From assembly GCA_036568185.1 (NCBI GenBank), contig DATCTB010000490.1:1-30157 (forward strand): 30,157 bases of DNA, written 5' to 3'. This DNA comes from Bacteroidales bacterium (lineage in GTDB: Bacteria; Bacteroidota; Bacteroidia; Bacteroidales; F082). Position numbers and translations under genes: made by a program. Of the stretch, positions 4,091 through 29,914 are shown piece after piece (position 1 is the first letter of the stretch; every line of letters starts with the position of its first letter). The notes beneath the pieces are model-generated. The model had not been told where the DNA came from and made no database searches. It saw only the letters and a list, made by a program, of their open reading frames with translations.

Positions 4091-5029
4091 TTAAGGCACT
4101 GGTTTCACATTTGTAAAAGTATGATACCATGCAAAAAGTGGTTCATTGGCCTGAACCATGCGTACTTTTAAGAGGTTATCAGTAACCTCAATAATTTCAT
4201 ATTCGCTTGAACCAGCATAAAAACCCATAAATCCACCATCTGAGAAATTGATGGTTGTGCCCCTGTATCCACCATCTATTGTGGCAATTGAAGAAGACGG
4301 GCTAAAGTTTGCATTTTTAATACCTGCAATATCAAATGGGTAGCTGCCTTCCGCGCCTAAACCAAATTCTTCGGCATAAATTCCCTGTATAAATGCTTCA
4401 CCGCTAGGGTTTTTTTGTTCGAATTTCATGTTTCCATTATCATTGGTGAAGACTAGCTCACACTGATAGAGTGTAGATTCTATTTTCTCCCATGGAGCTG
4501 CCTGATACCATGCCGGCCATGTCCATGAACCTGGCTCATAATCATAATTATTAGGCCCTAAACCGAGATGTCCGGTTTGATCAGCTGCCCAGTACCATGA
4601 TTTTGATGTTCCACCTGTTAAAAACAGGAATGCTTCTTCATCGGAAAAACTACTGTATACTTCGATTTGTGCAGATTTGCTTGAGGAAATTCCACCTGTT
4701 CCAACTGCAAACACGGTTACGGTGAACGCATTTAGGCCATTTACCGAAAACACGTGAGTTGTAGTACCATCAGCAGCTATCTGGTTATCTTTTCCATCTC
4801 CAAATTCGAAATTGAATGTGATGGCATTATCTGCCGTTGCGGTAAAATTTACCTGGCCACTGCCGTCTCCATTTGGATTTGCTTCATCAGCACCAACTAT
4901 TTCATAAGATAGCGTTACGTTAGTGGGTGAAATTAATGCACCCATTTCGTAGTTATCTTTCTGGCAACCAGTAGTTGCTGTTAGCATTCCAATAGAAATA
5001 ATTAAAATATATTTTATACTTTTCATCAT
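4091..5029 (-). CDS. PKD-domain surface lipoprotein, putative glycan-binding protein (SGBP)
   Basis: Lipobox ATTGC followed by QKDNYE; PKD motif FEFGDG; Trp-rich C-terminal domain (SWYWAA..GHLGLGP, WTWPAWYQAAPWE, AWYHTF); no GH catalytic motif seen; lies downstream of susD. Confidence 0.75.
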   Translation of the reverse strand: MMKSIKYILIISIGMLTATTGCQKDNYEMGALISPTNVTLSYEIVGADEANPNGDGSGQVNFTATADNAITFNFEFGDGKDNQIAADGTTTHVFSVNGLNAFTVTVFAVGTGGISSSKSAQIEVYSSFSDEEAFLFLTGGTSKSWYWAADQTGHLGLGPNNYDYEPGSWTWPAWYQAAPWEKIESTLYQCELVFTNDNGNMKFEQKNPSGEAFIQGIYAEEFGLGAEGSYPFDIAGIKNANFSPSSSIATIDGGYRGTTINFSDGGFMGFYAGSSEYEIIEVTDNLLKVRMVQANEPLFAWYHTFTNVKPVP

Positions 5030-5040
5030 CTATATAATTT

Positions 5041-7116
5041 TTAATTTTTAACAAGTATAAATCTCCACCATCCGCCTCCTATATCAATATCAAGTGTCAT
5101 TTCTGAATTGTCATCCGAGAGCGTTATTAGATAGGTAATTGAAGGTGGAGCATCATCCGGTGTTGTAAGCTCACCTCCATTATATGCTTTTGGAATACCA
5201 AGATAAGAACCTGTTCCATTAAGTGTTACAGTACCTGCACCTTCATCAAAGGAATAAGTGGCCGGTATGGAACCGTCATGAGGCGCAACCGGTGTTCCGC
5301 AGGCATCGCTGCCACCCTGCCATCCTTCAATCCATGATTCGCTTTCCAGCACATTGCTGAATGAACCATCGGCACCAAAAACATAAAGATCATCATAGAA
5401 ACAATCTCTTAACAAAACACCGGCTTCGTCTATTGACCACCATGAAATATCTCCAAGTGCAGGGCCTACTCCAAGCGATCCAGCGATTGGAGCTACTTGC
5501 CATGTCCCTTCTAAAGGGGAAGGAGCAACAGCACCATCTCTAACCAGTATAAATCTCCACCATCCGCCGCCAATATTAATATCAACGGTCATTTCGGAAT
5601 CGTCGTCAGAAAATGTTATAAGATATGTAATGGAAGGTGGAGCATCATCTGGTGTTGTTAGTTCACCCCCGTTATATGCTTTTGGAATACCAAGATAAGA
5701 ACCTGTTCCATTAAGTGTTACAGTACCTGCACTTGCATCGTAGGTATAAGTAGCAGGATTAGATCCATCATGGGGTGCAACAGGTGTTCCGCAGGCATCG
5801 CTGCCACCTTGCCATCCTTCTATCCATGTTTCAGCTTCCAATACATTCGTAAACGAACCATCGGCACCAAACACATAGCGATCATCAAAATAACAATCCC
5901 TTAGTATGACACCGGCCTCGTCTATCGACCACCATGAAATGTCACCTTGTGCCGGACCTACGCCAAGTGAACCTGCAACCGGTGCTACTTTCCATGTTCC
6001 TGCTATTCCCGGGCTAGCTGAACCTGTAACTTGTTTTATATCATCAAAATAGTAAACTGAGCCATCGCCAGGATTACCAAAATCGAAGAATATTACTATT
6101 TTCTGATAGGTATTATTCACATCAATTGCGGAGAAATTAAAAGTCAACTCCTCCCATTCATTACTTACAGTTGTTAATGCGTCAACTTCCATTGCTATGT
6201 CGCTATTGTCAAGGTTTTCCACCTTTAACTTAACTGTTGCACCTGATTTAGGTGACCAGGTTTTTACTTTAAAAACTTTTTTAGCTGAGAAATCAATAGG
6301 ATTTCCAAGGGTTAAAAAGCTACCTCCCCAAACTTCAGCACCAGTAGGTTTGACAGATTGGGCAACTCTTGAACTTTGGTTAATTCCCGAGATATCAGGA
6401 TTGTCAATAACCGAAGAAGTTACGCTTCCGAAATCGGTGAACGCGTAATTTACTGTGAATGATTCAAAAGTTATTGGCAATAGAACTGGATCGGAAGCCG
6501 CTGTGATAGTGATTGTTTCACTGTATTCGGTTGTTTCTGCTCCGGCACTTTTTGCCACAACTTTTATTACATAATCGCCTGCTTCAGCATAAGTGTGCTG
6601 GACAACTTCGTCAGGTAAAGCATGCGCAGGTTCTTCATCAGGAACATCACCAAAATAAATATCCATTATTGTAGCATAATCAGCATATGCAGAAACGGAA
6701 ATGATTTTAGGATTTGTAGCATCTTGTTCAATAGTAACAACAAGGTTTTCAGGTGCTTTGAAAGTGATATTAATGTCTTTGTCAACCGAAGCTGTAAGCC
6801 CTGTAATACCTACAGCAGTTATGCCAACGGTATAGACTCCTTCAGTGTAAACATGTGTAATACTTTCGTTTAAACCATAAACAGTGGGTGTTTCATCCAG
6901 AACATCGCCAAAAGTGATTTTATACTGTGTTACTCCTTCTGCTGTTGGATAAATTGTAACAAGCCCTGAATTATCCTGTGTAACATCAAAGGTTGCATTC
7001 ACATTGGCAGGGGCGCTTACATTGTCCAATTCACTCAGATTATCTACATTCTTATTGCAAGAAATTGCAAATAATAGGATGAACAGAAATACGCTTATTT
7101 TTTTCAATTGATTCAT
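5041..7116 (-). CDS. Multimodular surface lipoprotein (SGBP-B/SusE-positioned): PKD x2, CBM-like beta-sandwich, two near-identical Trp-rich domains
   Basis: Lipobox FAISC; ITFGD and IYFGD PKD motifs; LPITFES...WEELTFNF...YYFDDI CBM-like module; duplicated 155-aa C-terminal domain; directly follows susD. Confidence 0.8.
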   Translation of the reverse strand: MNQLKKISVFLFILLFAISCNKNVDNLSELDNVSAPANVNATFDVTQDNSGLVTIYPTAEGVTQYKITFGDVLDETPTVYGLNESITHVYTEGVYTVGITAVGITGLTASVDKDINITFKAPENLVVTIEQDATNPKIISVSAYADYATIMDIYFGDVPDEEPAHALPDEVVQHTYAEAGDYVIKVVAKSAGAETTEYSETITITAASDPVLLPITFESFTVNYAFTDFGSVTSSVIDNPDISGINQSSRVAQSVKPTGAEVWGGSFLTLGNPIDFSAKKVFKVKTWSPKSGATVKLKVENLDNSDIAMEVDALTTVSNEWEELTFNFSAIDVNNTYQKIVIFFDFGNPGDGSVYYFDDIKQVTGSASPGIAGTWKVAPVAGSLGVGPAQGDISWWSIDEAGVILRDCYFDDRYVFGADGSFTNVLEAETWIEGWQGGSDACGTPVAPHDGSNPATYTYDASAGTVTLNGTGSYLGIPKAYNGGELTTPDDAPPSITYLITFSDDDSEMTVDINIGGGWWRFILVRDGAVAPSPLEGTWQVAPIAGSLGVGPALGDISWWSIDEAGVLLRDCFYDDLYVFGADGSFSNVLESESWIEGWQGGSDACGTPVAPHDGSIPATYSFDEGAGTVTLNGTGSYLGIPKAYNGGELTTPDDAPPSITYLITLSDDNSEMTLDIDIGGGWWRFILVKN
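5049..6002 (-). repeat. Intragenic tandem duplication, 492-bp period (copies ~5049-5510 and ~5541-6002)
   Basis: Protein copies differ at 21 of 155 residues by my manual alignment. 5180-5240 is identical to 5672-5732 (61 nt). Confidence 0.95.
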
Positions 7117-7134
7117 CTTTAATTATATTTTGGA

Positions 7135-8628
7135 TTAATAATTAGGATTTTGAGTCCAGTTTCCGGCAGAAAAATCAATTTCTTCCAATGGTACCGGAAA
7201 AACTTCATTTTTACCTGCAACAAATCCATCAATTTGGTTAGCTGCTCTGCCAGTCCTCACCAGGTCAAAGAAATGAATTCCTTCACCCATCAATTCAACC
7301 CTACGTTCATGATAAATTGCATCGGTAAGTGCAGCGCCTGTTAAAGTAACATCATGATTTGAATCTCCAAACGCTCTTCTTCTTACTTCGTTAAGATATT
7401 CCTGGGCTTTTGCATCTGAGATTCCTCCAACATTATACGCTTCAGCAGCCATCAGTAAAACATCAGAATACCTGATAGCCCTGTAATTATTTGGATTTGT
7501 CAAGTTCAAATCATTTTGCGCATTAGGACCTCTCTTACGTGGAATATACTTTCTGTTGAAATATCCTGTGTGCTCGTTACCAGTAGTATATTCTGCACCA
7601 GTAGTGTCAGCCCAGGTAACAATATCCAGGATAGTTACATTTTTGCGCTGATCGCCAGCTTCAAATTGATCAACTGCTTCCTGAACAGGGACGTTGAAGC
7701 TAAAACCAGGCGAAAATAAGGGGCCTGTATAACCTCTAACACCGCTAAAGCCAACTGCTACATTTCCTTCGCTACATTGCAGGCAGCCAAATCCGGCACC
7801 TTCAGCTTCAGAATACTGTACTTCGAAAACAGAGCCTGGCCCGTTCTCACCTTCCTGTTCAAAAATTGAGTTGTAATCTGAAACCAGGTAATAAGAGCCA
7901 GAGCTTATTACCTCATCAAGAGCATTTGCAGCTTCTGCATATTTTTTCTGGTATAAATAAGCTTTTCCCAGCAAAGCCAACGCAGCTCCTCTTGTTGCTC
8001 TGCCAGCTTCGGTTTGTGTTTCGGGCAATAATTCAGCGGCAAGGATTAAATCTTGTTCTATAAATGCATAAACCTCAGGTACCGAATATCTTGGAATTGT
8101 TTTTTCGTCACCCAGCTGAAATCTTTCATTATTTTTAATCGGAATCGGGCCAAACCATTTTACTAGTTCAAAGTTGTAATAAGCACGCAGGAACCTTACT
8201 TCACCAATCATTTGGTCTTTTCCTTCGAAATCTATTTTATCCCTGAATTCCATAAAATAGTTAGTGCGCTGTACACCGGCAAACATCCAGTTCCAAATAT
8301 CACTGAGGTTACTGTTTGTAGGTGTTTGTGTCATATCATCAACTTGTTGCCACCCGATTACATCCGTAGGGCTTTCGCCGCCACATAATGTATTGTTTGA
8401 AGCAATTTCGCCAAGTATTACATTTTGGTAACTTGACTGCAACATATCGTAAGATGCAACAAGCGCCATATAATAATCAGATTCTGAGTTGAAATAATTT
8501 TCCGAGTCAATAGAATACTCCGGGGAAAGTTCGGTAAAGTTGCTGCAGGAAAATGTAAACAGTAAAACTGTAATAAATACTGCAATTTTCGATTTTTGTA
8601 ACATATCTTTTTTCATTTTTCTTTTCAT
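7135..8628 (-). CDS. susD: SusD/RagB family glycan-binding lipoprotein
   Basis: Lipobox FTFSC; GEVRFLRAYYNFELVKWFG, IRYSDVLLMAAEA, ERRVELMGEG..FFDLVR, WTQNPNY. The start is probably 8628 (overlapping the susC stop) or 8616/8604, not 8655. Confidence 0.95.
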   Translation of the reverse strand: MKRKMKKDMLQKSKIAVFITVLLFTFSCSNFTELSPEYSIDSENYFNSESDYYMALVASYDMLQSSYQNVILGEIASNNTLCGGESPTDVIGWQQVDDMTQTPTNSNLSDIWNWMFAGVQRTNYFMEFRDKIDFEGKDQMIGEVRFLRAYYNFELVKWFGPIPIKNNERFQLGDEKTIPRYSVPEVYAFIEQDLILAAELLPETQTEAGRATRGAALALLGKAYLYQKKYAEAANALDEVISSGSYYLVSDYNSIFEQEGENGPGSVFEVQYSEAEGAGFGCLQCSEGNVAVGFSGVRGYTGPLFSPGFSFNVPVQEAVDQFEAGDQRKNVTILDIVTWADTTGAEYTTGNEHTGYFNRKYIPRKRGPNAQNDLNLTNPNNYRAIRYSDVLLMAAEAYNVGGISDAKAQEYLNEVRRRAFGDSNHDVTLTGAALTDAIYHERRVELMGEGIHFFDLVRTGRAANQIDGFVAGKNEVFPVPLEEIDFSAGNWTQNPNY

Positions 8629-11600
8629 TAAAGTTTTAAGGTAAATCCTAACCAATATACCCTGGCAGCAGGGTAAAACCCTGAATCAAAGCCAGAACCG
8701 ATGGGTGCACCACTTGAGGCTGCCGGATCAAATCCCATATAATTAGTGAATGTGTAGAGGTTGTTAATTGCAAAGTAGAATCTAAGCTCTTTAACCTTTG
8801 ATTTCATTACATGTTCAGGAATGGTATATCCCAAAGAAACCCTTTGAAGCCTCAGATAGGAACCATCTTCAACGTAATAATCTGAAAACACATTATTCGC
8901 TGTTGCAGCTGTAGTAAGCCTGGGCACCGTATTGCTTGTTCCTGGACCGGTCCATCTGTCAAGCGTGTACGACATACGGTTTACGTTTGGCTGCACTCTT
9001 TCATAATTTCTGACAATATCATTACCGATACTGGTAATTGTATAGAGTAAAAAATCAAACCCTTTATAGTTTAAGGTAACATTCAAACCCATATAAAATT
9101 CTGGAATTGGGTCTCCAATATACGTTCTGTCATCTGAATTGAGAACACCATCACCGTTTACATCAACAAACCTGATGTCGCCCGGGCTGGCAGGTGCACC
9201 CAATGCAGATTGCGATGGGTGGGCATCCACTTCTTCCTGAGTTTGGAAAATTCCGTCAGTTTTGTATCCATAAAAATAACCTATCGGGAATCCAACCTCC
9301 ATGCGGGCTGGCAATGGCTGGCCAACTCCAAAACTACCACCTTCAATGTAACCGGTACCATTATCTACCGCGAGCACTTCATTGTCGATGAAAGTAAAAT
9401 TGTAATTAATGCCATAAGTTAACTTATCCGGATCGCCTCCGCGAAAACCAATTGCAAACTCAAAGCCTTGATTTCTGACCGTCCCCGCATTAATAGTTGG
9501 GCCACTTGCTCCGGGCGCCGAGGTACCGAGAATACCCGAAACAGGCACACTGCTTATTAATAGGTCATTGGTTGTTTTCATAAAATAATCTGACGTGATG
9601 TCCAGCCTGTTTCCAAAGAATGAAAGATCAAAACCAACATCAAATTGCTCAGACTGTTCCCACCTGATTCCAGGATTGGGTAATTTGCCAATAGCGGTTC
9701 CGCTGGTGAGTGTTCCATTCAGAACATACATGGCCTCACCATTAAGCAAAGAAATATATCCATAATCAGGAATTTTATCAGAACCCAGGTAACCGTAGCT
9801 CATCCTAATCTTGATCAAATCTACTTTTTCGGCATTTGCCATGAAATTTTCCTTTGAAATAATCCATCCTGCTGTAGCTGAAGGGAAATATGCTGCTGCA
9901 TTGTCGGGGCCAAATTTTGTAGAGGCATCCCTTCTAAACATAGCTGACACCAAATATTTTCCCTGGTAATCATATTGTGCTCTGATAAAATAAGACAACC
10001 TGCGCTGTTCATAAACCCATGAACCGGCTGTCTTTGACTCGCTCAGACCATTGGCCAGGCTGATATCTGCGTATTCCCATGAATTATTAGGAATGTCGTA
10101 GCCTGTTCCGTTTAAGTTATTGCCCCAAGTTTGGTAAATTGTAGTTCCAAGGGTTCCTGTTAAATGATGAGCTTTATTCCAGGTGTTGTCATAGCCAACA
10201 AAAAAGTCAGCTGTATAATCATTATAATTATCCTTGCTTTGATAAACACTGCTCCTGGTTACATCAAAAACTTTCCCGCCATAATCAACTATCATAGAAA
10301 AAGATTTGTAGTTGGTATTGGCAGTATTGAAACCAGCACGGGCTGTTGCGCTCCAGTGTTTTGCGAAACTGGCAGTTAAACCAAGGTTACCGTTCCACTT
10401 GCTCAAATTATAATCATTATAGGTATTCGCAAGTTGTTGAAGCGGATTGATAATTTCAATACCCAGGTTTTGGGGTGCAAGAAAATAATCTCCGTTTTGG
10501 TCATATATTGGAACCGTGGACGGTATATTTACCGCGTTAAACAACACTGAACCCAGACCAAAATCATTGAATGTAGTACGATCCAAATAGGTGTACATTA
10601 TAGAAGAGTTAAATTTGAGCCATTTGGTAAAGTCAGCTCCCATACTTAAGTTTACATTGGTCCTGCCATATTCGGAATTGTCACCTCCAATAATCCCCTG
10701 TTGTCTAACATCAGAAATGCCAAACGAATAACTCATTTTTTCAGATCCGCCGGAAATACTAAAATTATTATCAAAAATAGGAGCTGTTGAAAATAACTCA
10801 TCCTGCCAGTCGGTTCCTTCTCCCAGGTTTGAAACATCGGGATAAGGAAGTTCCTGTCCATTTGCGGCATAGCTTTCATTTAATAAAATGGCATATTCGG
10901 TTGAATTAAGCACCGGCAAGGTTCTGGTAGTTTGCTGCAAACCAAAGTTGCTGTTGAAACTAACAGTGGTGGGTGTATTTCTTTTACCTGTTTTTGTTGT
11001 AATAAGAATGATACCATTTGCACCTACAGTTCCATAAATAGCTGCCTGAGCATCCTTCAAAACAGTAATGGTTTCAATATCATTGGGATTCAAAGTATTC
11101 AAATCGCCCTGATATCCGTCAATAATAACAACTGGGGAAGCATCTCCATTGGTTGAAATACCCCTGATGCGAATGTCCAACCCGGCACCAGGTGAACCTG
11201 ATTGCTCGGTAACCTGCACACCCGTCATGGTTCCTTGTAGTGCTTGCTCTACTTTGACAGGTTTTAGGTTGTTAATTGTTTTCGTGTCAACGGTAGAAAC
11301 GGCTCCTGTTAAATCTATTTTTTTAACAGTTCCATAACCAATAACAACAACTTCGTCTAATTGAGAAACATCAGATTTCATTTGAATGTTGATGACACTT
11401 TGGTCTCCAACAACCACCTCAATCGTTTGCATACCAATAAAAGAAAAAACGACTACTGAAGTTGGTGAAACATTTTGCAACTGGTATTTTCCATCAATAT
11501 CAGTCACAGTACCTGTTGTAGTACCTTTTACCAAAACTGTAACACCGGGAATAGATAACTTATCATCAGCAGACGTAACAACTCCTGATATCGTTTTATC

Positions 11601-11666
11601 CTGGGCAATCATGGCGATAGGTATGAAAAACAGTAAAAAAATAAAAAACGAATAAACTTTTTTCAT
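8628..11666 (-). CDS. susC: SusC/RagA family TonB-dependent transporter
   Basis: Signal peptide MKKVYSFFIFLLFFIPIAMIA (ATG 11666 preferred over TTG 11717); IPGVTVLVKGTTTGTVTDIDG, LDEVVVIGYG, DIETITVLKDAQAAIYG, GANGIILITTK, C-terminal YPAARVYWLGFTLKL. Confidence 0.97.
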   Translation of the reverse strand: MKKVYSFFIFLLFFIPIAMIAQDKTISGVVTSADDKLSIPGVTVLVKGTTTGTVTDIDGKYQLQNVSPTSVVVFSFIGMQTIEVVVGDQSVINIQMKSDVSQLDEVVVIGYGTVKKIDLTGAVSTVDTKTINNLKPVKVEQALQGTMTGVQVTEQSGSPGAGLDIRIRGISTNGDASPVVIIDGYQGDLNTLNPNDIETITVLKDAQAAIYGTVGANGIILITTKTGKRNTPTTVSFNSNFGLQQTTRTLPVLNSTEYAILLNESYAANGQELPYPDVSNLGEGTDWQDELFSTAPIFDNNFSISGGSEKMSYSFGISDVRQQGIIGGDNSEYGRTNVNLSMGADFTKWLKFNSSIMYTYLDRTTFNDFGLGSVLFNAVNIPSTVPIYDQNGDYFLAPQNLGIEIINPLQQLANTYNDYNLSKWNGNLGLTASFAKHWSATARAGFNTANTNYKSFSMIVDYGGKVFDVTRSSVYQSKDNYNDYTADFFVGYDNTWNKAHHLTGTLGTTIYQTWGNNLNGTGYDIPNNSWEYADISLANGLSESKTAGSWVYEQRRLSYFIRAQYDYQGKYLVSAMFRRDASTKFGPDNAAAYFPSATAGWIISKENFMANAEKVDLIKIRMSYGYLGSDKIPDYGYISLLNGEAMYVLNGTLTSGTAIGKLPNPGIRWEQSEQFDVGFDLSFFGNRLDITSDYFMKTTNDLLISSVPVSGILGTSAPGASGPTINAGTVRNQGFEFAIGFRGGDPDKLTYGINYNFTFIDNEVLAVDNGTGYIEGGSFGVGQPLPARMEVGFPIGYFYGYKTDGIFQTQEEVDAHPSQSALGAPASPGDIRFVDVNGDGVLNSDDRTYIGDPIPEFYMGLNVTLNYKGFDFLLYTITSIGNDIVRNYERVQPNVNRMSYTLDRWTGPGTSNTVPRLTTAATANNVFSDYYVEDGSYLRLQRVSLGYTIPEHVMKSKVKELRFYFAINNLYTFTNYMGFDPAASSGAPIGSGFDSGFYPAARVYWLGFTLKL

Positions 11667-11740
11667 AATGGGTATTTTGTGTGTAAACAATTTTTTTAGA
11701 AACCTTTTGGATTGCAACTTGCGTGCCGTTTAAATTTTAC

Positions 11741-11923: not shown

Positions 11924-14806
11924 TTAAAAGGAAATAATAAAGTCGGTTAAGTTGATGTCAGATGTTAAATTTAGTTTTTTTCTTAGTCTGTACCTGCTTA
12001 TTTCAACACCACGAATGGAAATGTTCATCAGCGTGGCAATTTCTTTACTCGATATGTTCATGCGCAAATAGGCACATAATTTTAATTCCCGGGGAGATAA
12101 GGAAGGATATTCTGATTTAATGCTGTTTAAGAATTCTTCATGAACTTTTACAAATTGGGTTTCAAAAACTTTCCATTGGTTCTCATTTTCAATTTCTTTG
12201 TTAATTTTCCTCACTAAATGATGAGATTGATGTTTATGTCCTTCATCGTTTGATGATGCAGAAAGTTTTTTCAATTCATCACGCAAAGTCATCAGCATCT
12301 CATTTTTATGAAGTGTTTGCATAGTAGCGTTGGCCAGTTCTTTGTCTTTTTGTAACATCTCGGCGCGCAGTTTATCATTCCTCAGTTTAATAACTTCCTT
12401 TTCTGCAAGCAAAGCTTCGTTCAGCAATCGCCTTTCGCGTTCTTTATATAAGCGTTCTTGCTTTTCTTTTTCGCGGTTTTTCAAAACACCAATTCTATAT
12501 TTAATTATTCTGAAAAATAATGCAAGAATTATTATAAAAACCAATGCATAAAACAAAAAAGCAACCCAGCTAAGATACCAAGGTGGCAAAATGGAAAATT
12601 CTAACTGGCAAACTTCAGACTCAACATCATAAATATTTCGGGCTTTTACTTTGAATAAATAATTTCCATGCCGGAGGTTAGTGAATTCTCTGTATTCACG
12701 TTTTTCCCAGCGTGTCCAATCTTCGTCATAACCTTCAAGAAAAGTTGAAAACAATAACTCATCAGCATTCTCAAAATCGTTGGCGGAATATGAAAATTGT
12801 AATCCATTGTAATCATAAGGAATCTTATCAGGAATGCTGGCTTTCTCCACTTTCTCTCCAAAATAAATAATTGAGTCGGCACCAGACAGTGTGACTTCTC
12901 TGATATAAGTGTTAAACTCGAATTGATAATTTTTTGGATACTTTGGTAGATAATGTGCAAACCCATTCTGGGTACCAAATAGTACGTTTTCGCTATTGAT
13001 GGAATATACAAACTGGAAACCTTTTATAAACATATCATCAAGCTGCCTGAAGGGTATGACTAAATCAAAATAACTGCCGTCTTCTTGTTTTTTTAATACA
13101 CCTGCTTTGCTGTTGGCAAAATACCAGATATTTTCCTCACCATCTTCATAAATTGCGGTTGGTTTACGGTTTTTGAATAAAGTATTTATTTCATCAGAAT
13201 ACTCTATTCTGTTTGTTTTACTATTAAACACATATATACCTTCGCTGGTTGTGAAAATCGGCTTTCCCCTGAATTCAAATACGTTGATGCCAAAATTGTT
13301 CGGAAAACCTTGTTCTGAATTATAAAATTTGACCATTATCGCGCTGTCAAGTTTTTCATCCAAACTAACTTTAAAAACGCCTTTGTAACCGTGACTAATC
13401 CATATCTCTTTGTCTAAGCCATTCTCAATGAACCGCGAAGATTCATCAAATCCTTTTATTTTATTCTGAAAAACCCAATTATCATTAATTCTTTTATAAG
13501 CCAATAAGCCGGAATAGGTTCCTTCAATTAATATGTCATCATAACCATTAAGTTTTAAAAAACTCCACCCGCCCGGCTCACTTGATATTCTCTTCGCTTG
13601 AAAGCCTCTAATCGAAAATGTGCCTGAATTATGACCGCACAACAGTTCACCATCCACAACCTGGAGTTTCCATACTTGCCCCTGTGTTTGTGGAATAAGT
13701 TGAAATTTATTATCAGAACCGTTTTGCAAATCAATCCAGGGCTTAGCAAAAACACCCTGGTTTGTACCAAGATAGAGTATTCCTTCGTACAGGACTGCCG
13801 CATAACCGGCGCTAATGCCTTCAGAATAGGAAAAGAATGAAAGCGGAGAATTAATTTCTATATAATCAATTCCATTATCGAGTCCAAGCCATAGATTTCC
13901 GTATTGATCAATGTTTAAACACAATACTGTATTGTTTTGCAAACCATTCTGACGATTGATTTGTTGAAGTATTACACCTGCAGTATCACATATTAACAAC
14001 CCATTTTGTACTGTGCCAAAAGCATATTTTGTGGCGTTTATTTCAATGCAGCAAAAAGCCTGGTTATCAATTAAAAACTGGTTGGCTGAGTTCTTCCATG
14101 CCGTTAATGCTATTCCATTATATTCAAAAACTCCTTTTTCGGCAGTAATAATTATAAGGTTTTCCTTTTTTTGGAGAATATTAATAATGAGTTCTCCTTT
14201 TAGGCTTTCCGTTCCCGGAACTTTTACAAGATGATTTCTGTACAACTTAAACAGGCCGTCGCGCAAATCATTAACAAAAATTTCACCATTTACCGAAAAC
14301 GAAAAATGAAATTTAGATGGGGCAGGAATGACATTAATAGTATCACCAGCATATATCATGAGTTGTTCATAAGACTGGAAAACAACCCCTTGCGACAAAA
14401 TAAAAATTCTCCATACTTCATCAAAATCTCTGTAATCCACTGGAACCTTATCCTGCAATTGAACGTAATTAAGCTTACCATTAATGTCGTGTAAAAAGTA
14501 GCCAAACTCATTAAATGCTCCTACATATATCTTGCCTTCATCGCTCACTTTTACACTCCGCACACCTGAACCTGAATTGACCGGATAAGTTATCCAATTT
14601 TTTCCGTCAAATTCGAGCAAACCATCATTGTTGGCAAAATAAACTATACCCTTGTTACTGACATCTATCATCCACGATTGCATGCCGGCTTCATATTCCA
14701 AATTTGAGTAGTTTTTTATCTGGGGTTTACCAATGCCGTTTAAGTCTGCAAATCCTAAATTGCAATTTACTATTAGAAAGAAAATTAAAACATTTCTTAA
14801 CGACAT
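11924..14806 (-). CDS. Membrane-spanning one-component regulator: periplasmic beta-propeller + Y_Y_Y domain + TM helix + LuxR/GerE-type HTH
   Basis: Signal peptide; propeller repeats (VYFANNDGLLEFDG, LWLGLDNGIDY); YTFLEGYDEDW/FTNLRHGNYLFKVKA-type Y_Y_Y region; TM PPWYLSWVAFLFYALVFIIILALFF; coiled coil; LSPRELKLCAYLRMNISSKEIA..MNISIRGVEISRYRLRKKL. No HisKA, HATPase or receiver motifs seen. Confidence 0.9.
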   Translation of the reverse strand: MSLRNVLIFFLIVNCNLGFADLNGIGKPQIKNYSNLEYEAGMQSWMIDVSNKGIVYFANNDGLLEFDGKNWITYPVNSGSGVRSVKVSDEGKIYVGAFNEFGYFLHDINGKLNYVQLQDKVPVDYRDFDEVWRIFILSQGVVFQSYEQLMIYAGDTINVIPAPSKFHFSFSVNGEIFVNDLRDGLFKLYRNHLVKVPGTESLKGELIINILQKKENLIIITAEKGVFEYNGIALTAWKNSANQFLIDNQAFCCIEINATKYAFGTVQNGLLICDTAGVILQQINRQNGLQNNTVLCLNIDQYGNLWLGLDNGIDYIEINSPLSFFSYSEGISAGYAAVLYEGILYLGTNQGVFAKPWIDLQNGSDNKFQLIPQTQGQVWKLQVVDGELLCGHNSGTFSIRGFQAKRISSEPGGWSFLKLNGYDDILIEGTYSGLLAYKRINDNWVFQNKIKGFDESSRFIENGLDKEIWISHGYKGVFKVSLDEKLDSAIMVKFYNSEQGFPNNFGINVFEFRGKPIFTTSEGIYVFNSKTNRIEYSDEINTLFKNRKPTAIYEDGEENIWYFANSKAGVLKKQEDGSYFDLVIPFRQLDDMFIKGFQFVYSINSENVLFGTQNGFAHYLPKYPKNYQFEFNTYIREVTLSGADSIIYFGEKVEKASIPDKIPYDYNGLQFSYSANDFENADELLFSTFLEGYDEDWTRWEKREYREFTNLRHGNYLFKVKARNIYDVESEVCQLEFSILPPWYLSWVAFLFYALVFIIILALFFRIIKYRIGVLKNREKEKQERLYKERERRLLNEALLAEKEVIKLRNDKLRAEMLQKDKELANATMQTLHKNEMLMTLRDELKKLSASSNDEGHKHQSHHLVRKINKEIENENQWKVFETQFVKVHEEFLNSIKSEYPSLSPRELKLCAYLRMNISSKEIATLMNISIRGVEISRYRLRKKLNLTSDINLTDFIISF

Positions 14807-15353: not shown

Positions 15354-16094
15354 ATGCAATTGATTCTCGACATCGGAAACTCGTACGCTAAACTTGCTGT
15401 TTTCGATGGCCCCGAAATCATCGAAATGAAAGTTTCCGAAGATATTGTAAAAAGCAAGGTTGAAGATGTCTTAAATACTTATCCGAAAATAAATGCAGCA
15501 ATTTTATCAGATGTTCGCGGAAAACCCCAATTAATTTCTGAATTTCTTAGTCAACGTGTTTACTTTATTGAGTTGAGCCACACAACCCCCGTCCCATTCA
15601 GTAACCTGTATCAATCTCCTGCAACTCTTGGCAAAGATAGAATTGCCTGTGTTGCCGCAGCCCTGAAGATGTTTCCCCTGCAAAATGTACTGGTGATTGA
15701 TGCAGGAACTTGCATAACTTATGATTTGGTAAACAACAAAAGTGAGTACTTAGGCGGTGCAATCAGCCCTGGAATAAATATGCGCTTCAAAGCTTTGCAC
15801 GATTTTACCGGAAAACTCCCGCTCATCAAAGCCACTAACGACAGCATACCTGAGTTGATTGGAAACAACACAAACAATTCAATTTATGCAGGTGTTCAAA
15901 AGGCCGTTTTGCTGGAGGTGGATGCCATGATAAATGAGTATCAGTCAAGGTTTCAGGGACTAAAAACTATCCTCAGTGGCGGCGACTATTTTTATTTTGA
16001 TAAGAATTTAAAAAGTAACATATTTGCAACCCCAAATATTGTCATAAAGGGATTGAAGGAAATCCTTGATTTTAATGAAGATAGCAAAGTTTAA
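15354..16094 (+). CDS. coaX: Type III pantothenate kinase
   Basis: LDIGNSYAK, LGKDRIA, VIDAGTCITYD, GGAISPGINMRFKALH. Confidence 0.95.
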   Translation: MQLILDIGNSYAKLAVFDGPEIIEMKVSEDIVKSKVEDVLNTYPKINAAILSDVRGKPQLISEFLSQRVYFIELSHTTPVPFSNLYQSPATLGKDRIACVAAALKMFPLQNVLVIDAGTCITYDLVNNKSEYLGGAISPGINMRFKALHDFTGKLPLIKATNDSIPELIGNNTNNSIYAGVQKAVLLEVDAMINEYQSRFQGLKTILSGGDYFYFDKNLKSNIFATPNIVIKGLKEILDFNEDSKV

Positions 16095-17355
16095 TATTTT
16101 ATTTATCCTGTTTTTTTGCAGCTTTGCAATAACTGCACAAAATTCAATCAATTCGCCATATAGCAGATTTGGTTTGGGAGTTCTACACGGAAGAAACGTG
16201 AACACCGTATCGATGGGCATGGGCGGAGTAGCTTATGCTATCAACGATCCAACCATGGTAAACCCTGCAAATCCTGCTTCATATGCAGCCTTTGATTCAA
16301 CCTCATTTATTTTCGAAGCCAGCCTGATAGGCAATTTCGATAATATAAAAACCAATGTAGCCTCGGAAAAGTCTTCGTATATGACATTAAATTATGTGTT
16401 GTTGGGTTTTCCTGTTTCCAAGTGGTGGAAAACAAGCCTGGGTGTAATGCCTTATAGCAAAATTGGTTTTAATGTTAAAATAACTGCTGAAGTAGATAAT
16501 TTTTCAAACGTAGTGAACGAATTAAATGGTGAAGGGGGCTTAAACCAGTTTTATTGGGGAAATGGTTTCAAAATTGGTAAAAACCTAAAGATTGGCTTTG
16601 ATGCGACGTATGTTTTTGGCCAGGGAAGCCGCAGCAGCCTGGTTTATTATCCCGACTCGCTCTACATTCGATCAACAAAAGTTGAAAACAGCACCACCGG
16701 AAAGGATTTTATATTTGATTATGGCCTTCAGTACGATTTTCACCTGAACAATGACCGGCTGTTAAGAATTGGCCTTGTATATGCCAATACTTTTTACATG
16801 AAAGCCACACAAAGTTCAGTTGGGTACACCATGTTTGGCGGATACAGCGATTTTTCAGAAGATATTCAGGACACAATATTTTACATCCCTGAAGATGAAG
16901 GTTTAATCCTTATTCCACAACAAGCCGGAGTGGGGATTACTTTGCTTAAAAGCAACCGCTGGCTTGTTAGTGCTGACTTTGCCTGGCAGCAATGGAATAG
17001 TTTTGAAGCATTTGGCCAGAACGATTCGTTGACAGATGCCTGGAGAATAGCTGTTGGCGGGCAATACACACCTAAATTTACCAGTATTTCAAATTATTTC
17101 ACAAAAGTTACCTATCGCGCTGGTTTTAGGTATGAGAATACTTATCTTTACCTCTTTGGAAAGCAAATTTCAGGTTATGGCATAAGTTTTGGACTTAGCT
17201 TACCGTTGAAAAATTCAAAATCAGGTATTGATATTGGATTTGAATTTGGAAAATTAGGAACAACAGAAAATAATTTATTGCAAACAAATTTTGTTAATTT
17301 TTCGCTTGGCATTTCTATCTTTGAAAGCTGGTTTAACAAAAGAAAATATAATTAG
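16075..17355 (+). CDS. Outer-membrane beta-barrel, FadL/OmpP1-like
   Basis: Signal peptide ending AITAQ; NSPYSRFGLG, SMGMGGVAYA, NPANPASYA, GEGGLNQFYWG; alternating beta-strand pattern. ATG 16075 is preferred over TTG 16066. Confidence 0.75.
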   Translation: MKIAKFNILFILFFCSFAITAQNSINSPYSRFGLGVLHGRNVNTVSMGMGGVAYAINDPTMVNPANPASYAAFDSTSFIFEASLIGNFDNIKTNVASEKSSYMTLNYVLLGFPVSKWWKTSLGVMPYSKIGFNVKITAEVDNFSNVVNELNGEGGLNQFYWGNGFKIGKNLKIGFDATYVFGQGSRSSLVYYPDSLYIRSTKVENSTTGKDFIFDYGLQYDFHLNNDRLLRIGLVYANTFYMKATQSSVGYTMFGGYSDFSEDIQDTIFYIPEDEGLILIPQQAGVGITLLKSNRWLVSADFAWQQWNSFEAFGQNDSLTDAWRIAVGGQYTPKFTSISNYFTKVTYRAGFRYENTYLYLFGKQISGYGISFGLSLPLKNSKSGIDIGFEFGKLGTTENNLLQTNFVNFSLGISIFESWFNKRKYN

Positions 17356-26336: not shown

Positions 26337-26344
26337 TACTTTTG
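26337..26344 (+). promoter_or_regulatory. Candidate -7 element for the lipoprotein-M4 protease pair
   Basis: TACTTTTG, 29 nt upstream of ATG 26374. Confidence 0.5.
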
Positions 26345-26373
26345 ATTGAATTAAACCAAACAAAATTCCAACA

Positions 26374-26793
26374 ATGAAAAATTTCATTAGTTTTCTTTTC
26401 GCGGTAGCATTTCTTCTTACTTCCTGTCATTCAAGCAAAAACCTGAACAGCACTTCAGAAAAAGTTATACTTTTCGGAAATGGAGGTGGTTTTACCGGAC
26501 AGGTGATTGAATACATTTTGGACGAAAACGGAACCTTCATGAAAAATGACAAGCTTAAGTCAGAGCTTACGATTATGTCTACACTGAAGAAATCTGAAAT
26601 TAGAAAACTATTTAAAGAGCTGGAATCTATTCAGTTCGATACAATTAACTTTAAACACCCCGGAAACACATATTATTTTATCAGGAGCAATACTGACAAT
26701 ACTTCTCATGAAGTGGTTTGGGGCGAACCCGATAACCTGCCGCCAACCGGCGTTATCCAGTTGTATGATTTGTTAATATCAAAAACAAAATAA
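26374..26793 (+). CDS. Small lipoprotein of unknown function (emfourin-like motif pattern)
   Basis: Lipobox LLTSC; ILFGNGGGFTG, SEIRKLFKELESIQF, PGNTYYFI, HEVVWGE, PTGVIQLYDLL. Confidence 0.8.
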   Translation: MKNFISFLFAVAFLLTSCHSSKNLNSTSEKVILFGNGGGFTGQVIEYILDENGTFMKNDKLKSELTIMSTLKKSEIRKLFKELESIQFDTINFKHPGNTYYFIRSNTDNTSHEVVWGEPDNLPPTGVIQLYDLLISKTK

Positions 26794-26812
26794 ATTTTAA
26801 AACTTCATTACC

Positions 26813-29800
26813 ATGAAAAAAATCTACTTAACATTCGCAAGTATGCTCATTGTCTGCTTAGCTTTTTTGCAACAAGGCAATTTGTTCGCGCAACAAAATG
26901 GATTTTCGGGTAAGCAAAAAACTTCGAACGCCAATCAGAGTTTTACTCCTGAAAATCTTTTTAAAATCGGAAATTCTGAAAGAGCCGAATCTGAAAGAAT
27001 TGCCTCAGCCGAAAGCCTGGCCTACAATTCCATTCCCTTTTTTAAACCAAACAGCATTGATGGAAACAACTATTCTTCTTTGAAATATGCTGCCAACAGC
27101 CAGTTGATTTTTGCCGAAAACAAATCAGGAAGCGGTGTTTCTTATGAGTCAAGGTCTCAAGAAAACATCTCGGAAGCTTGTTATATGTACCTGGATCAAC
27201 TTGCCAAAGCAATTTATATTGAAAACCCTTCCGAAGAATTTAAGGTGATTGAAACTAAGGAAGATAATTTAGGTTTTATTCATATAAAAATGCAGCAGTA
27301 TTTTGAAGAAATTACGGTGTATGGCGGCCAGGTAGTTTTACACGGGAGCAATGGTATGCTGAATACTTTTAATGGAAATTGCTTTCCAACTCCCAAATTA
27401 TCATCGCTTACACCCGAAATTTCTACAGAACAAGCAGTTGAAATAGTTCGTGCCGATGTAAGCCAGCATTCACAAATGAAAGACCTGACAGAAAATGAAA
27501 AATTTATTTTGAATTATTCGAATCCTGTTCCTGAACTGGTTATATATCATAACCGGCTGCAATTGAATGCCGAGAAGTTGGTTTGGCATATCACCTTCAG
27601 GCCGAATTTTCTTGCTCGATGGGAATATTTTGTTGATGCCATTTCGGGTGAAATCATCAATAAATATGACAACACCTGCACCGATGGCCCGGCAACAGCC
27701 CAAGCTGTTGACCTGAACGGAGTAAGCCGCTCAATTGACACATATTTATCAGGAGGTAAATATTACATGATCGATGCTTCGCGCCCGATGTTCAATTCGG
27801 GGCAATCACAAATGCCTGATAAACCGGTCGGAGCCATCTGGACTATTGACGCCAATAATACAAGCGGCCAGAATATTAGCCTGTTTCATATTACATCGAA
27901 CAACAACCAGTGGAATAACCCAACCGGTGTTTCGGCACATTACAATGCCGGTGTTACTTATGAATATTTTAAAAATGTGCATAACCGCAATTCGATAAAC
28001 GATAAGGGAGGAACAATTATTTCCATTATAAACGTGGCTGACGATAATGGCGGCGGTATGGATAATGCATACTGGAATGGTGAAGCCATGTTTTATGGAA
28101 ATGGCGACCAGGCCTTTAAGCCTTTGGCTGGTGGGCTCGATGTAGGCGCCCACGAAATGACACATGGTGTAGTTCAAAACACTGCCAACCTGGAGTATCA
28201 ATATGAATCTGGAGCAATCAATGAGGCAATGGCCGATATAGCAGGTTGCATGGTTGACCGCCAGGACTGGAAATTAGGCGAAGATGTTATTCCTGCCGGA
28301 AGCCCTTATTTTCCTTCGGGCGCACTACGCGACATGCAAAATCCCCACAACGGCGGAACCAGCTTGAACGACAATGGATACCAACCCATGCACATGAGTG
28401 AAAAATACAATGGCTCTGATGACAACGGCGGAGTACACATCAATAGCGGAATTATAAACCATGCCTATTATTTACTGGCTGAAAGCATTTCAAAAGACAA
28501 AGCAGAAAAACTTTTTTACCGAGCCCTGGCCAATTATATGACCAAAAGTTCACAATTCATTGACTGCCGCCTTGCTTTTGAACAATCGGCAAAAGACCTT
28601 TATGGAGCTGGCTCAAATGAATACAATGCAGTAGTAACAGCATTTTACTCGGTTGGAATTGGAGAAAATACTGGTGGTGGTGGTGGAAGCGCACCTCCCG
28701 GTGAATTGCCTGTTAATCCAGGTCAGGACTATATTGTTAGCTATGATGTAAATCCTGCAGACCCAAACACTTTGTATATTTCGAGCACTCAAGGTGATAA
28801 TTTTGTGCCGATTAGCGAAACAAAAATGAAAGGCAAACTTAGTGCTACCGACGATGGTTCTTTTGCACTATTTATCAGCGAATCAGACGAAATGAGGTAT
28901 ATCGAACTGCAGGCACCCTACAATGAAGACAAACTTTCCTCACAATTGATTTGGGATAATGTTGCCATTTCGAAAGATGGCAACCGCATTGCTGCTATTA
29001 CAACTGAAATAGATTCCGCAATCTGGGTGTATGATTATAACACAGAAGTCTGGGCAAAATACCATTTGTACAACCCAACTTTTACCCCAGGCGTTGTTAC
29101 CGAAAATGTTTTGTATGCCGACCAGATTGAATGGGACTACTCAGGAGAATACCTGATTTATGATGCATATAATGAAATGGAAAACAGCAGTGGCGAAAAT
29201 ATTGATTACTGGGATATGGGTCTGATAAGGGTATGGAACAAAGCCGCTAACAGCTGGGGCGATGGGCAGATTTTCAAGATTTTTTCAAACCTGCCTGAAG
29301 GAATTAGTGTTGGCAACCCAAGCCTTTCCAAAAATTCGCCTTACATCATGGCATTTGATTATCTTGACAGCAATACCGGAGAAATGGATGTGCTGGCGGC
29401 CAATCTTGAAACCGGCGATATTGGGACTATTTTTGAAGGCAATTTAGTACTCGGTTATCCTAATTATTCGAAAGAGGACAATAAAATTGTTTTCAGTGCC
29501 CAAGACACTCAAAATAATGAGGTTGTAGCTGAAATACCTCTTAAAATAAATAAAATTGAACCCAATGGTAGTGCTACCATTTTAATTGGCGATGCCAAAT
29601 GGCCCATCTGGTATTCAACCGGAATTCGCGATTTATCAGATGTTGAAGATCAATTAGCTGAAAATATTTTCACAAACGCTTACCCCAACCCTTTCAGCGA
29701 TGAACTAACGGTTGTAATAAATGGAAAATCAAATGCAGATTATCGCATTGAAGTCTATAATATGTATGGGCAGCTCGTAAGCCAGAAATCAGGCATATCT

Positions 29801-29914
29801 GCAGAATCATTTACAAAAACGAATTTTACTTTAAGCCAATTGGCAAAAGGAACTTATGTTGTAAAAGTTTTTGTTGGAAATAAAGTTAGCAGCCTGAAGG
29901 TGGTGAAGAGTTGA
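26813..29914 (+). CDS. M4 (thermolysin/bacillolysin) zinc metalloprotease preproprotein with TolB-like propeller and T9SS C-terminal sorting domain
   Basis: Signal peptide; FTP/PepSY-like propeptide (HIKMQQYFEEITVYGGQ, WEYFVDAISGEII); NAYWNG, AHEMTHGV, SGAINEAMAD, DNGGVHINSG; Gly linker; PD40-like repeats; YPNPFSDE...IEVYNMYGQLV...KGTYVVKV...KVVK. Confidence 0.95.
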   Translation: MKKIYLTFASMLIVCLAFLQQGNLFAQQNGFSGKQKTSNANQSFTPENLFKIGNSERAESERIASAESLAYNSIPFFKPNSIDGNNYSSLKYAANSQLIFAENKSGSGVSYESRSQENISEACYMYLDQLAKAIYIENPSEEFKVIETKEDNLGFIHIKMQQYFEEITVYGGQVVLHGSNGMLNTFNGNCFPTPKLSSLTPEISTEQAVEIVRADVSQHSQMKDLTENEKFILNYSNPVPELVIYHNRLQLNAEKLVWHITFRPNFLARWEYFVDAISGEIINKYDNTCTDGPATAQAVDLNGVSRSIDTYLSGGKYYMIDASRPMFNSGQSQMPDKPVGAIWTIDANNTSGQNISLFHITSNNNQWNNPTGVSAHYNAGVTYEYFKNVHNRNSINDKGGTIISIINVADDNGGGMDNAYWNGEAMFYGNGDQAFKPLAGGLDVGAHEMTHGVVQNTANLEYQYESGAINEAMADIAGCMVDRQDWKLGEDVIPAGSPYFPSGALRDMQNPHNGGTSLNDNGYQPMHMSEKYNGSDDNGGVHINSGIINHAYYLLAESISKDKAEKLFYRALANYMTKSSQFIDCRLAFEQSAKDLYGAGSNEYNAVVTAFYSVGIGENTGGGGGSAPPGELPVNPGQDYIVSYDVNPADPNTLYISSTQGDNFVPISETKMKGKLSATDDGSFALFISESDEMRYIELQAPYNEDKLSSQLIWDNVAISKDGNRIAAITTEIDSAIWVYDYNTEVWAKYHLYNPTFTPGVVTENVLYADQIEWDYSGEYLIYDAYNEMENSSGENIDYWDMGLIRVWNKAANSWGDGQIFKIFSNLPEGISVGNPSLSKNSPYIMAFDYLDSNTGEMDVLAANLETGDIGTIFEGNLVLGYPNYSKEDNKIVFSAQDTQNNEVVAEIPLKINKIEPNGSATILIGDAKWPIWYSTGIRDLSDVEDQLAENIFTNAYPNPFSDELTVVINGKSNADYRIEVYNMYGQLVSQKSGISAESFTKTNFTLSQLAKGTYVVKVFVGNKVSSLKVVKS

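Follow-up and report, generated by a model that had tools for sequence, protein, structure and literature searches.

We describe a pair of genes on a 30,157-nucleotide stretch of DNA from a Bacteroidales bacterium (positions 1 to 30,157 of contig DATCTB010000490.1, assembly GCA_036568185.1; below, the window). The first gene encodes a lipoprotein of 139 amino acids (aa), the second a 1033-aa zinc protease of the thermolysin family M4 that carries the sorting domain of type IX secretion system (T9SS) cargo. We propose that the lipoprotein is probably a lipid-anchored inhibitor directed at the active site of the M4 protease, whose gene follows 19 bp after its own. A functional pairing of the two proteins is strongly supported. 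The proposal builds on linkage of the genes, conservation of the lipoprotein family, a fold model and a complex prediction that passed its controls, while inhibition as such, to which the complex model points, is well motivated but unproven.

The original prediction, made from this DNA by eye, had placed the end of the lipoprotein gene 19 bp before the M4 gene, and the two open reading frames (ORFs) bear this out (Table 1). The protease has both catalytic domains of family M4, the HExxH motif, a Glu as third zinc ligand and the catalytic His, and its Por_Secre_tail domain marks it as T9SS cargo. Approximately 330 residues between the catalytic and sorting domains (residues ~617–956, window 28661–29680) have no Pfam match. 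In one partner enzyme of another family member the same middle region matches PD40/WD40-like beta-propeller repeats, and in others it holds PKD, CUB or SusE-like inserts. At the N-terminus of the lipoprotein we find a hydrophobic stretch followed by a lipobox-like LTS/C with Cys18 as the Cys. The motifs that had been listed for it by eye, FGNGGGFTG, a helix, HPGNTYYFI, HEVVWGE and PP..V..LYDLL, are indeed present and coincide with the conserved columns of its family.

The pairing with M4 genes recurs well beyond this locus. Our first sample comprised 401 Bacteroidota genomes drawn evenly across the phylum, in which adjacency was assessed from coordinates and ORF analysis. The lipoprotein family occurs as a single copy in each of 37 of these genomes and Peptidase_M4 in 78, and 26 of the 37 family genes, from 14 taxonomic families, directly adjoin an M4 gene on the same strand. 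The gaps in these pairs are mostly −8 to +70 bp, including several stop/start overlaps of 1 or 4 bp, and the lipoprotein gene lies upstream in 24 of the 26, the M4 gene coming first in two lineages (L052, L053). Every one of the 26 partner proteases has both M4 domains and retains H447, E448, H451, E471 and H542 as invariant residues, with protease identity going down to 26–43%; FTP is found in 25, and a sorting domain (Por_Secre_tail in 25, CHU_C in one) identifies all of them as T9SS cargo. The probability of meeting one of ~100 M4 genes among ~1.4 million genes by chance adjacency is negligible, and because the sampled genomes are related, the number of lineages weighs more than the number of genomes. 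A second sample, 27 loci from species-representative genomes chosen by two family motifs only, gave the same picture: an M4 gene follows immediately downstream in 22, and in one the contig ends at the family gene. These loci span Saprospiraceae, Chitinophagales, Bacteroidales, Lentimicrobiaceae, Emticicia, Aureispira, Rhodothermales and a Chlorobiota metagenome-assembled genome (MAG). The expectation that homologues would co-occur with M4 genes was confirmed in both samples, and two further observations made at the single locus hold as well, namely that the partner is a long-propeptide, T9SS-sorted enzyme and that the gene order is truly the reverse of that known for emfourin.

As a comparison, we inspected two other families in the first sample. 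None of the 71 DUF6438 matches adjoins an M4 gene, and the linkage is therefore specific to the lipoprotein family. Genes for emfourin, an inhibitor of M4 proteases, lie directly downstream of a short (343–385 aa) M4 gene in 6 of 6 examined (loci L004–L009). The emfourin family PF20242 is rare in this sample, with matches in 7 of the 401 genomes at E ≤ 0.001, 4 of them above the cut-off; the seventh match (G040) lies inside a 10586-aa open frame. In the ESM Atlas, an Actinomycetota cluster of 1312 members joins Peptidase_M4, Peptidase_M4_C and Emfourin in one chain of ~490 aa.

The family to which the lipoprotein belongs is large and without annotation. Pfam and NCBIfam searches with the 139-aa sequence gave no match, PF20242 failing to appear even at E ≤ 1, and a word-based search for close homologues returned only 15 near relatives. 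A profile search of 1.84 billion representatives, by comparison, found 1299 clusters (50% identity) at E ≤ 0.001, 647 of them at E ≤ 1e-10, with members mostly of 135–150 aa. Among 130 diverse members a Pfam scan matched no consistent family, cluster look-ups for ten representatives gave no informative names, sequence searches of the PDB with the lipoprotein or the family profile returned nothing meaningful, and neither protease nor inhibitor domains were detected in the longer members. One such member (P0061, 596 aa) has an AsmA-like N-terminal region (PF05170) fused ahead of the family domain at 470–580, and several others of 177–213 aa carry N-terminal extensions without annotation.

The invariant or near-invariant columns of the family are the lipidated Cys, F-G-x-G-G-G-F-x-G, P-G-N-x-Y-x-F, W-G and a C-terminal Y..L. 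The lipidated Cys is kept in 122 of 130 members, and positions +2 to +6 after it are basic or neutral, with an acidic residue absent in 107 of the 122. In Bacteroidota, lipoproteins exposed on the surface have an acidic export signal just after the lipidated Cys; since the N-terminus here has no such signal, the anchored lipoprotein most likely faces the periplasm, as far as its sequence can tell.

An AlphaFold model of the lipoprotein built on the 130-sequence alignment reached a predicted local distance difference test score (pLDDT) of 88 and a predicted template-modelling score (pTM) of 0.79; a run with only 16 close homologues had a pLDDT of 50 and was discarded. Along the chain, the model has four strands and a helix followed by two strands and a second helix, giving a six-stranded sheet with two helices that resembles Mago nashi. 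For the complex, the mature lipoprotein was modelled with protease residues 290–625 from separate alignments in three runs. It scored 0.94, versus 0.58 for the best control, with at least 97% contact agreement between the three runs and a partner pLDDT of at least 86; in the calibration of the score, 58 of 80 solved complexes attained the mark, as did 2 of 110 mismatched pairs. The predicted interface comprises 417–424, 433–438, 444, H447, E448, H451, 462–463, 470, 505, 537–538 and 542 on the protease and mature residues 18–28, 79–83, 98, 101–102 and the C-terminal helix on the lipoprotein, and its residues are the invariant or near-invariant columns of the family. The original prediction had raised the possibility that the GGGFTG region enters the active site, and the model does place the invariant GGGF loop, as predicted, in the active-site cleft.

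Protease residues 418–421 correspond, as we take it, to the edge strand N112–W115 of thermolysin, which pairs with substrates, and L438, V444 and L505 presumably to L133, V139 and L202 of the thermolysin S1′ pocket. In the complex model Phe40 (mature residue 23) contacts protease residues 438, 444, 447, 448 and 505, and by this mapping onto thermolysin numbering the residue would occupy the S1′ pocket. The predicted pose appears substrate-like, resembling that of a 'standard mechanism' inhibitor with Gly39-Phe40 at the scissile position. It is also similar to the modelled pose of PotE, a lipoprotein of Tannerella forsythia, on forsilysin (PMC9890683).

A mechanism that would account for these features is as follows. 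Both genes would be expressed from one transcript, and both products would cross the inner membrane by the Sec pathway. The lipoprotein would stay anchored by Cys18, most likely facing the periplasm, where the protease would fold ahead of export by the T9SS. The Gly-Gly-Gly-Phe-Thr-Gly loop would then occupy the cleft in the manner of a substrate and pair with the N-A-Y-W edge strand, Phe40 would enter the hydrophobic S1′ pocket beside the zinc site, and the PGNxY motif and the C-terminal helix would add contacts. In this way a protease that had lost its propeptide could be kept harmless until export.

The family members that are not linked to M4 genes are informative with respect to the loop. 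In one genome (G371, locus L042) the family gene (5986–6447, −) lies directly upstream of a Peptidase_M61 gene (4140–5921, −) and downstream of an M20 gene (6455–7642, −); the M61 partner is a glycyl aminopeptidase with a PDZ domain, and the GGGF loop of this copy reads 'GQA--IGG'. At another locus (L110) a copy with an intact GGGFAG (4938–5375, +) stands 24 bp upstream of a gene for a secreted Peptidase_M49 (5399–7462, +) of the dipeptidyl-peptidase III type, which like M61 is a zinc peptidase. Two genomes of the same genus differ in the protease: G309 (L052) has the order lpdA, M4, family gene, and G349 (L044) has lpdA and the family gene with the M4 gene missing between them, an apparent recent loss of the protease gene, and the orphan copy reads GTSGGYSG instead of GTAGGFTG. 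In five genomes of one taxonomic family the lipoprotein gene lies beside the gene for EF-P, and four of these genomes carry an M4 gene at another place; two weak family matches adjoin gltX. Further orphan copies are found in Zobellia uliginosa, Rhodocytophaga aerolata, one Saprospiraceae MAG and one other genome (G097). Overall, 47 of 48 M4-linked copies retain GGG[F/V/Y/I]xG; the motif is altered in the M61-linked, the Zobellia and both gltX-linked copies, and partly altered in the copy that has lost its M4 neighbour. This pattern fits a loop tuned to M4 enzymes. At one further locus (L126) the family gene is split into the overlapping ORFs 4944–5183 and 5059–5370 (+; 79 and 103 aa) ahead of an intact 1018-aa M4 gene, and is either a frameshifted pseudogene or the product of an assembly error.

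Several observations weigh against inhibition as the role of the lipoprotein. An FTP/PepSY propeptide normally keeps such a zymogen latent, which leaves no obvious need for a second inhibitor. Of the 97 M4 matches in the 401-genome sample, about 70 have no partner from the lipoprotein family, and about a quarter of the family genes adjoin no peptidase. With respect to the complex, the control that scored 0.58 was an unrelated protein of 137 aa, implying that the M4 cleft is 'sticky' for the prediction model, and the high score of the pair may reflect memory of, or likeness to, solved protease–inhibitor complexes. Finally, homology to emfourin is not established at the level of sequence.

That the protease already has an inhibitory propeptide of its own would also suit a lipoprotein that serves mainly as escort, maturation factor or tether of the enzyme, with inhibition a side effect; such a protein might hand the enzyme over to the T9SS at the outer membrane, help in removal of the propeptide or retain the enzyme on the cell. 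The same linkage data fit this explanation, every partner is T9SS cargo, and the M61 and M49 partners suggest a more general handling role. The predicted interface, however, is the catalytic cleft and neither the sorting domain nor the propeller-like middle region, and the most conserved residues of the family form a substrate-like loop. Moreover, the source genome has 144 sorting-domain matches and only one gene of the lipoprotein family, leaving most of its T9SS cargo without such a partner, and we regard the escort role as unlikely. Another idea is that the lipoprotein is a cell-surface immunity protein that shields the outer membrane of the producer, or sister cells, from the secreted protease. 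There is precedent in the potempins of T. forsythia, which share this gene layout, are located on the outer leaflet and guard the outer membrane (PMC9890683), and in emfourin, for which an immunity role has been proposed (PMC9505478). The mostly basic +2 to +6 positions that lack an acidic residue in most lipidated members do not fit a surface location, and although this argument is read from sequence only, it makes the surface role improbable in our view.

The quarter of family genes that lie off peptidases, with neighbours such as EF-P, gltX and LptD-like or BamB-like genes, together with the lack of family annotation in Pfam and NCBIfam, could also mean that something other than the protease keeps the neighbourhood together and that the lipoprotein has an independent function. 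We consider this very unlikely, since the linkage extends over 14 taxonomic families and beyond Bacteroidota (Rhodothermales, the Chlorobiota MAG), in both gene orders and with overlapping codons, since the motif of the lipoprotein has started to change in the congener that lost its M4 gene, and since DUF6438 was never found beside M4. Inhibition of the M4 protease from a lipid anchor thus stands as the explanation that we favour. A broader version of it is conceivable, though in our view less likely than not: a widespread, unannotated branch of an emfourin/DUF6438 fold superfamily may serve as a lipid-anchored, periplasm-facing 'safety catch' for T9SS-exported zinc metallopeptidases, mainly of family M4 with offshoots to M61 and M49, in which a substrate-like Gly-Gly-Gly-Phe loop blocks the active site until export.

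How the lipoprotein relates to emfourin is a separate matter, for which structure and sequence give answers of different strength. Among solved structures the best match to the lipoprotein model is Mago nashi (Magoh; PDB 1HL6 chain B and 1P27 chain A), a eukaryotic nuclear exon-junction protein with no link to proteases, and the likeness is one of fold only, at 8–9% sequence identity. The solved emfourin structure 6ZYG, determined by nuclear magnetic resonance and present in the PDB copy searched, is absent among the fold matches listed for the model. In the ESM Atlas, the first match after the family itself is an 'Emfourin domain-containing' cluster with a template-modelling (TM) score of 0.68 and an rmsd of 2.7 over 108 residues, a comparison between predicted models on both sides with a cluster in which 27% of the members carry PF20242. 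Further Atlas matches are clusters bearing DUF6438, and such domains occur fused to BsuPI or Kunitz protease-inhibitor domains. A reciprocal Atlas search from a Pedobacter emfourin, whose query model was poor (pLDDT 0.62), did not return the lipoprotein family and gave only a DUF6438-bearing cluster at TM 0.50. By language-model features the nearest named families are DUF6438 (0.91) and Emfourin (0.88).

Profile comparisons place DUF6438 nearest as well. With hhalign the family matched DUF6438 at 81.5% probability (E 1.1e-5, 93 columns). Against a 10-sequence emfourin alignment the probability was 50.8% (E 1.6e-4, 81 columns), and against alignments of 125 and 44 emfourin sequences it was 8.8% and 8.6% (E 0.004, 85 and 86 columns); despite the weak probabilities, the alignments were colinear each time with the same placement of motifs. 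Bacteroidota emfourin genes encode GGF[A/T]G after the first strand, a helix, D-x-F-R-Y-R-I and a C-terminal V-P-x-x-[IL]-[KR]. Emfourin sequences diverge strongly among themselves: the 44-sequence profile reaches the Serratia protein 6ZYG only at E 0.19, and the other emfourin profiles do not reach it. PF20242 has no match at E ≤ 0.001 anywhere in the source genome and none among 130 family members at E ≤ 0.01; PF20033 (DUF6438) matches neither the lipoprotein nor the source genome, and matches one of 130 members at E 0.008. Membership in either family was rejected on these grounds, the Pfam models giving no match. The likeness to emfourin that had been judged by eye therefore has support from the comparison of predicted models and from the language-model features, is colinear but weak in profile comparison and does not extend to a Pfam match, and DUF6438 is closer in sequence. 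We conclude that the lipoprotein family, emfourin and DUF6438 probably share a fold and perhaps an ancestor, with homology between the lipoprotein family and emfourin appearing about as probable as its absence. Our statements on emfourin structure draw on PMC9505478 and the title of the PDB entry.

The features of the locus are collected in Table 1. From their spacing alone, the lipoprotein and M4 genes appear to be co-transcribed. The original prediction had put both behind one candidate promoter, and there is indeed a TAnnTTTG before the lipoprotein gene; with no other + strand match in 26345–28797, no candidate −7 element lies directly before the M4 gene. The motif occurs across the window at chance level, without enrichment, and no −33 element was seen with this candidate. 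A sigma-70 scan of the locus gave nothing useful, the scan model being ill-suited to Bacteroidota promoters.

Table 1. Features of the lipoprotein–M4 protease locus, with positions in the window.
Feature	Position	Strand	Basis
Candidate Bacteroidota-type −7 promoter element TACTTTTG (TAnnTTTG)	26337..26344	+	Motif scan; 30 nt upstream of the lipoprotein start codon
Lipoprotein gene	26374..26793	+	ORF, 139 aa
Putative lipoprotein signal peptide (residues 1–17) and lipidated Cys18	26374..26427	+	Lipobox read from sequence; Cys conservation
Codons of residues 35–45, GNGGGFTGQVI (mature 18–28), invariant glycine-rich loop with Phe40 central	26476..26508	+	Invariant columns; predicted interface
Codons of residues 96–100, PGNTY (mature 79–83), second conserved motif of the predicted interface	26659..26673	+	P, G and N nearly invariant; complex model
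19-bp intergenic spacer	26794..26812	.	No promoter- or terminator-like element
M4 zinc protease precursor gene, 1033 aa	26813..29914	+	ORF and Pfam/NCBIfam matches
Propeptide domains FTP (141–189) and PepSY (203–284)	27233..27664	+	FTP E 1.2e-11; PepSY E 2e-4, below Pfam's cut-off
Catalytic domains Peptidase_M4 (299–455) and Peptidase_M4_C (458–616)	27707..28660	+	E 1.1e-36 and 1.8e-44
HEMTH (residues 447–451)	28151-28165	+	Read in Peptidase_M4 domain
T9SS C-terminal sorting domain Por_Secre_tail (957–1029)	29681..29899	+	PF18962 E 6.3e-12; TIGR04183 E 2.3e-12

Divergently oriented upstream of the lipoprotein gene are genes for PBP2 and RodA, followed by a SurA-like isomerase, a CorC-type transporter and a SusC/SusD pair; the surroundings of the gene pair are an ordinary chromosomal context. 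The source genome assembly consists of 627 contigs and is 82% complete, and it contains one Peptidase_M4 match. Elsewhere in the window, two long ORFs, 5041–7116 (−; 691 aa) and 16066–17355 (+; 429 aa), gave no hit in Pfam at E ≤ 1e-5, and the former adjoins a SusD/SusC pair (7135–11717, −) and a Y_Y_Y/LuxR-type regulator (11924–14806, −).

The proposal matters beyond this locus, because T9SS proteases fold in the periplasm and how cells survive them is largely unexplained outside Tannerella. If it is true, it would offer a general answer for the M4 enzymes of soil, sediment and water Bacteroidota, give a function to ~1300 protein clusters that are now hypothetical, link emfourin and DUF6438 in one fold group and supply a new natural scaffold against enzymes of the thermolysin type, among them many virulence factors and proteases used in industry. 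As to how inhibitor specificity is re-tuned, the family members beside M61 and M49 genes would be a natural experiment. Should the broader 'safety catch' version be true, emfourin-type inhibition would be ancient and adapted from cytoplasmic to envelope proteases, and potempin-like control of T9SS proteases would be general in the Bacteroidota–Chlorobiota group and not confined to one oral pathogen.

Lastly, we compared the lipoprotein with the known systems that it resembles. Emfourin (M4in; PF20242; MEROPS I104) of Serratia proteamaculans is an operon-encoded, 1:1 active-site inhibitor of protealysin and thermolysin that acts in an intracellular setting (PMC9505478). Like the lipoprotein, it is a small single domain encoded in an operon with an M4 gene, a trait that the lipoprotein gene shares through its 19-bp gap and common strand, and in both GGF[A/T]G follows the first strand, the order of helix, aromatic strand and C-terminal P..V helix being alike as well. 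In contrast to the lipoprotein, which has a lipoprotein signal peptide, emfourin has no signal peptide; the lipoprotein is ~25 residues longer, with two extra strands as the alignment reads. The partners differ as well, being protealysin-like enzymes of 343–385 aa for emfourin and enzymes of ~1000 aa that combine an FTP propeptide with a T9SS sorting domain for the lipoprotein, and the emfourin gene lies downstream of the protease whereas the lipoprotein gene is usually upstream. The lipoprotein signal, together with an FTP/PepSY- and T9SS-equipped partner, rules out an emfourin of the intracellular, short-propeptide type. DUF6438 (PF20033), the closest relative by hhalign and language-model features, is similar in size and common in Bacteroidota, and has a CFGxCPxY motif where the lipoprotein family has GGGFTG. 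In our sample (L077–L101) it often occurs in several copies per genome, never beside M4 genes.

The potempins are the closest parallel in arrangement. The genes of these T. forsythia lipoproteins (98–132 residues) directly precede those of six T9SS peptidases, with which they are co-transcribed, and stop where the peptidase gene starts or no more than a few bp away (PMC9890683). The proteins are five-stranded oligonucleotide/oligosaccharide-binding folds or eight-stranded up-and-down beta-barrels with a loop that enters the active-site cleft, and PotE inhibits the M4 enzyme forsilysin with a hydrophobic residue in the S1′ pocket in a substrate-like manner; they have been described as unique to pathogenic T. 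forsythia (PMC9890683). The view that a pairing of this kind had not been described is consequently not tenable, lipoprotein inhibitors encoded upstream of T9SS peptidases, the PotE/forsilysin pair included, being already known. The same paper notes an orphan lipoprotein of T. forsythia, as yet unverified, next to a thermolysin-like gene (BFO_0702/BFO_0703; PMC9890683); this lipoprotein might be a member of the family described here. Potempins share with our lipoprotein the anchor, the small size and a gene immediately upstream of a T9SS peptidase, and they differ in fold, barrels standing against a modelled six-stranded sheet with two helices, in their outer-leaflet location compared with N-termini that lack acidic residues, and in range, one oral pathogen as opposed to many environmental Bacteroidota, Rhodothermales and a Chlorobiota MAG. 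The fold speaks against classing the lipoprotein as a potempin, and a PDB search with the family profile brought up no chain of a potempin at E ≤ 10. In summary, our reading is that the lipoprotein acts like emfourin and the potempins and belongs to neither family, combining the probable fold class and the target family of emfourin with the anchoring, gene layout and cargo type of the potempins.

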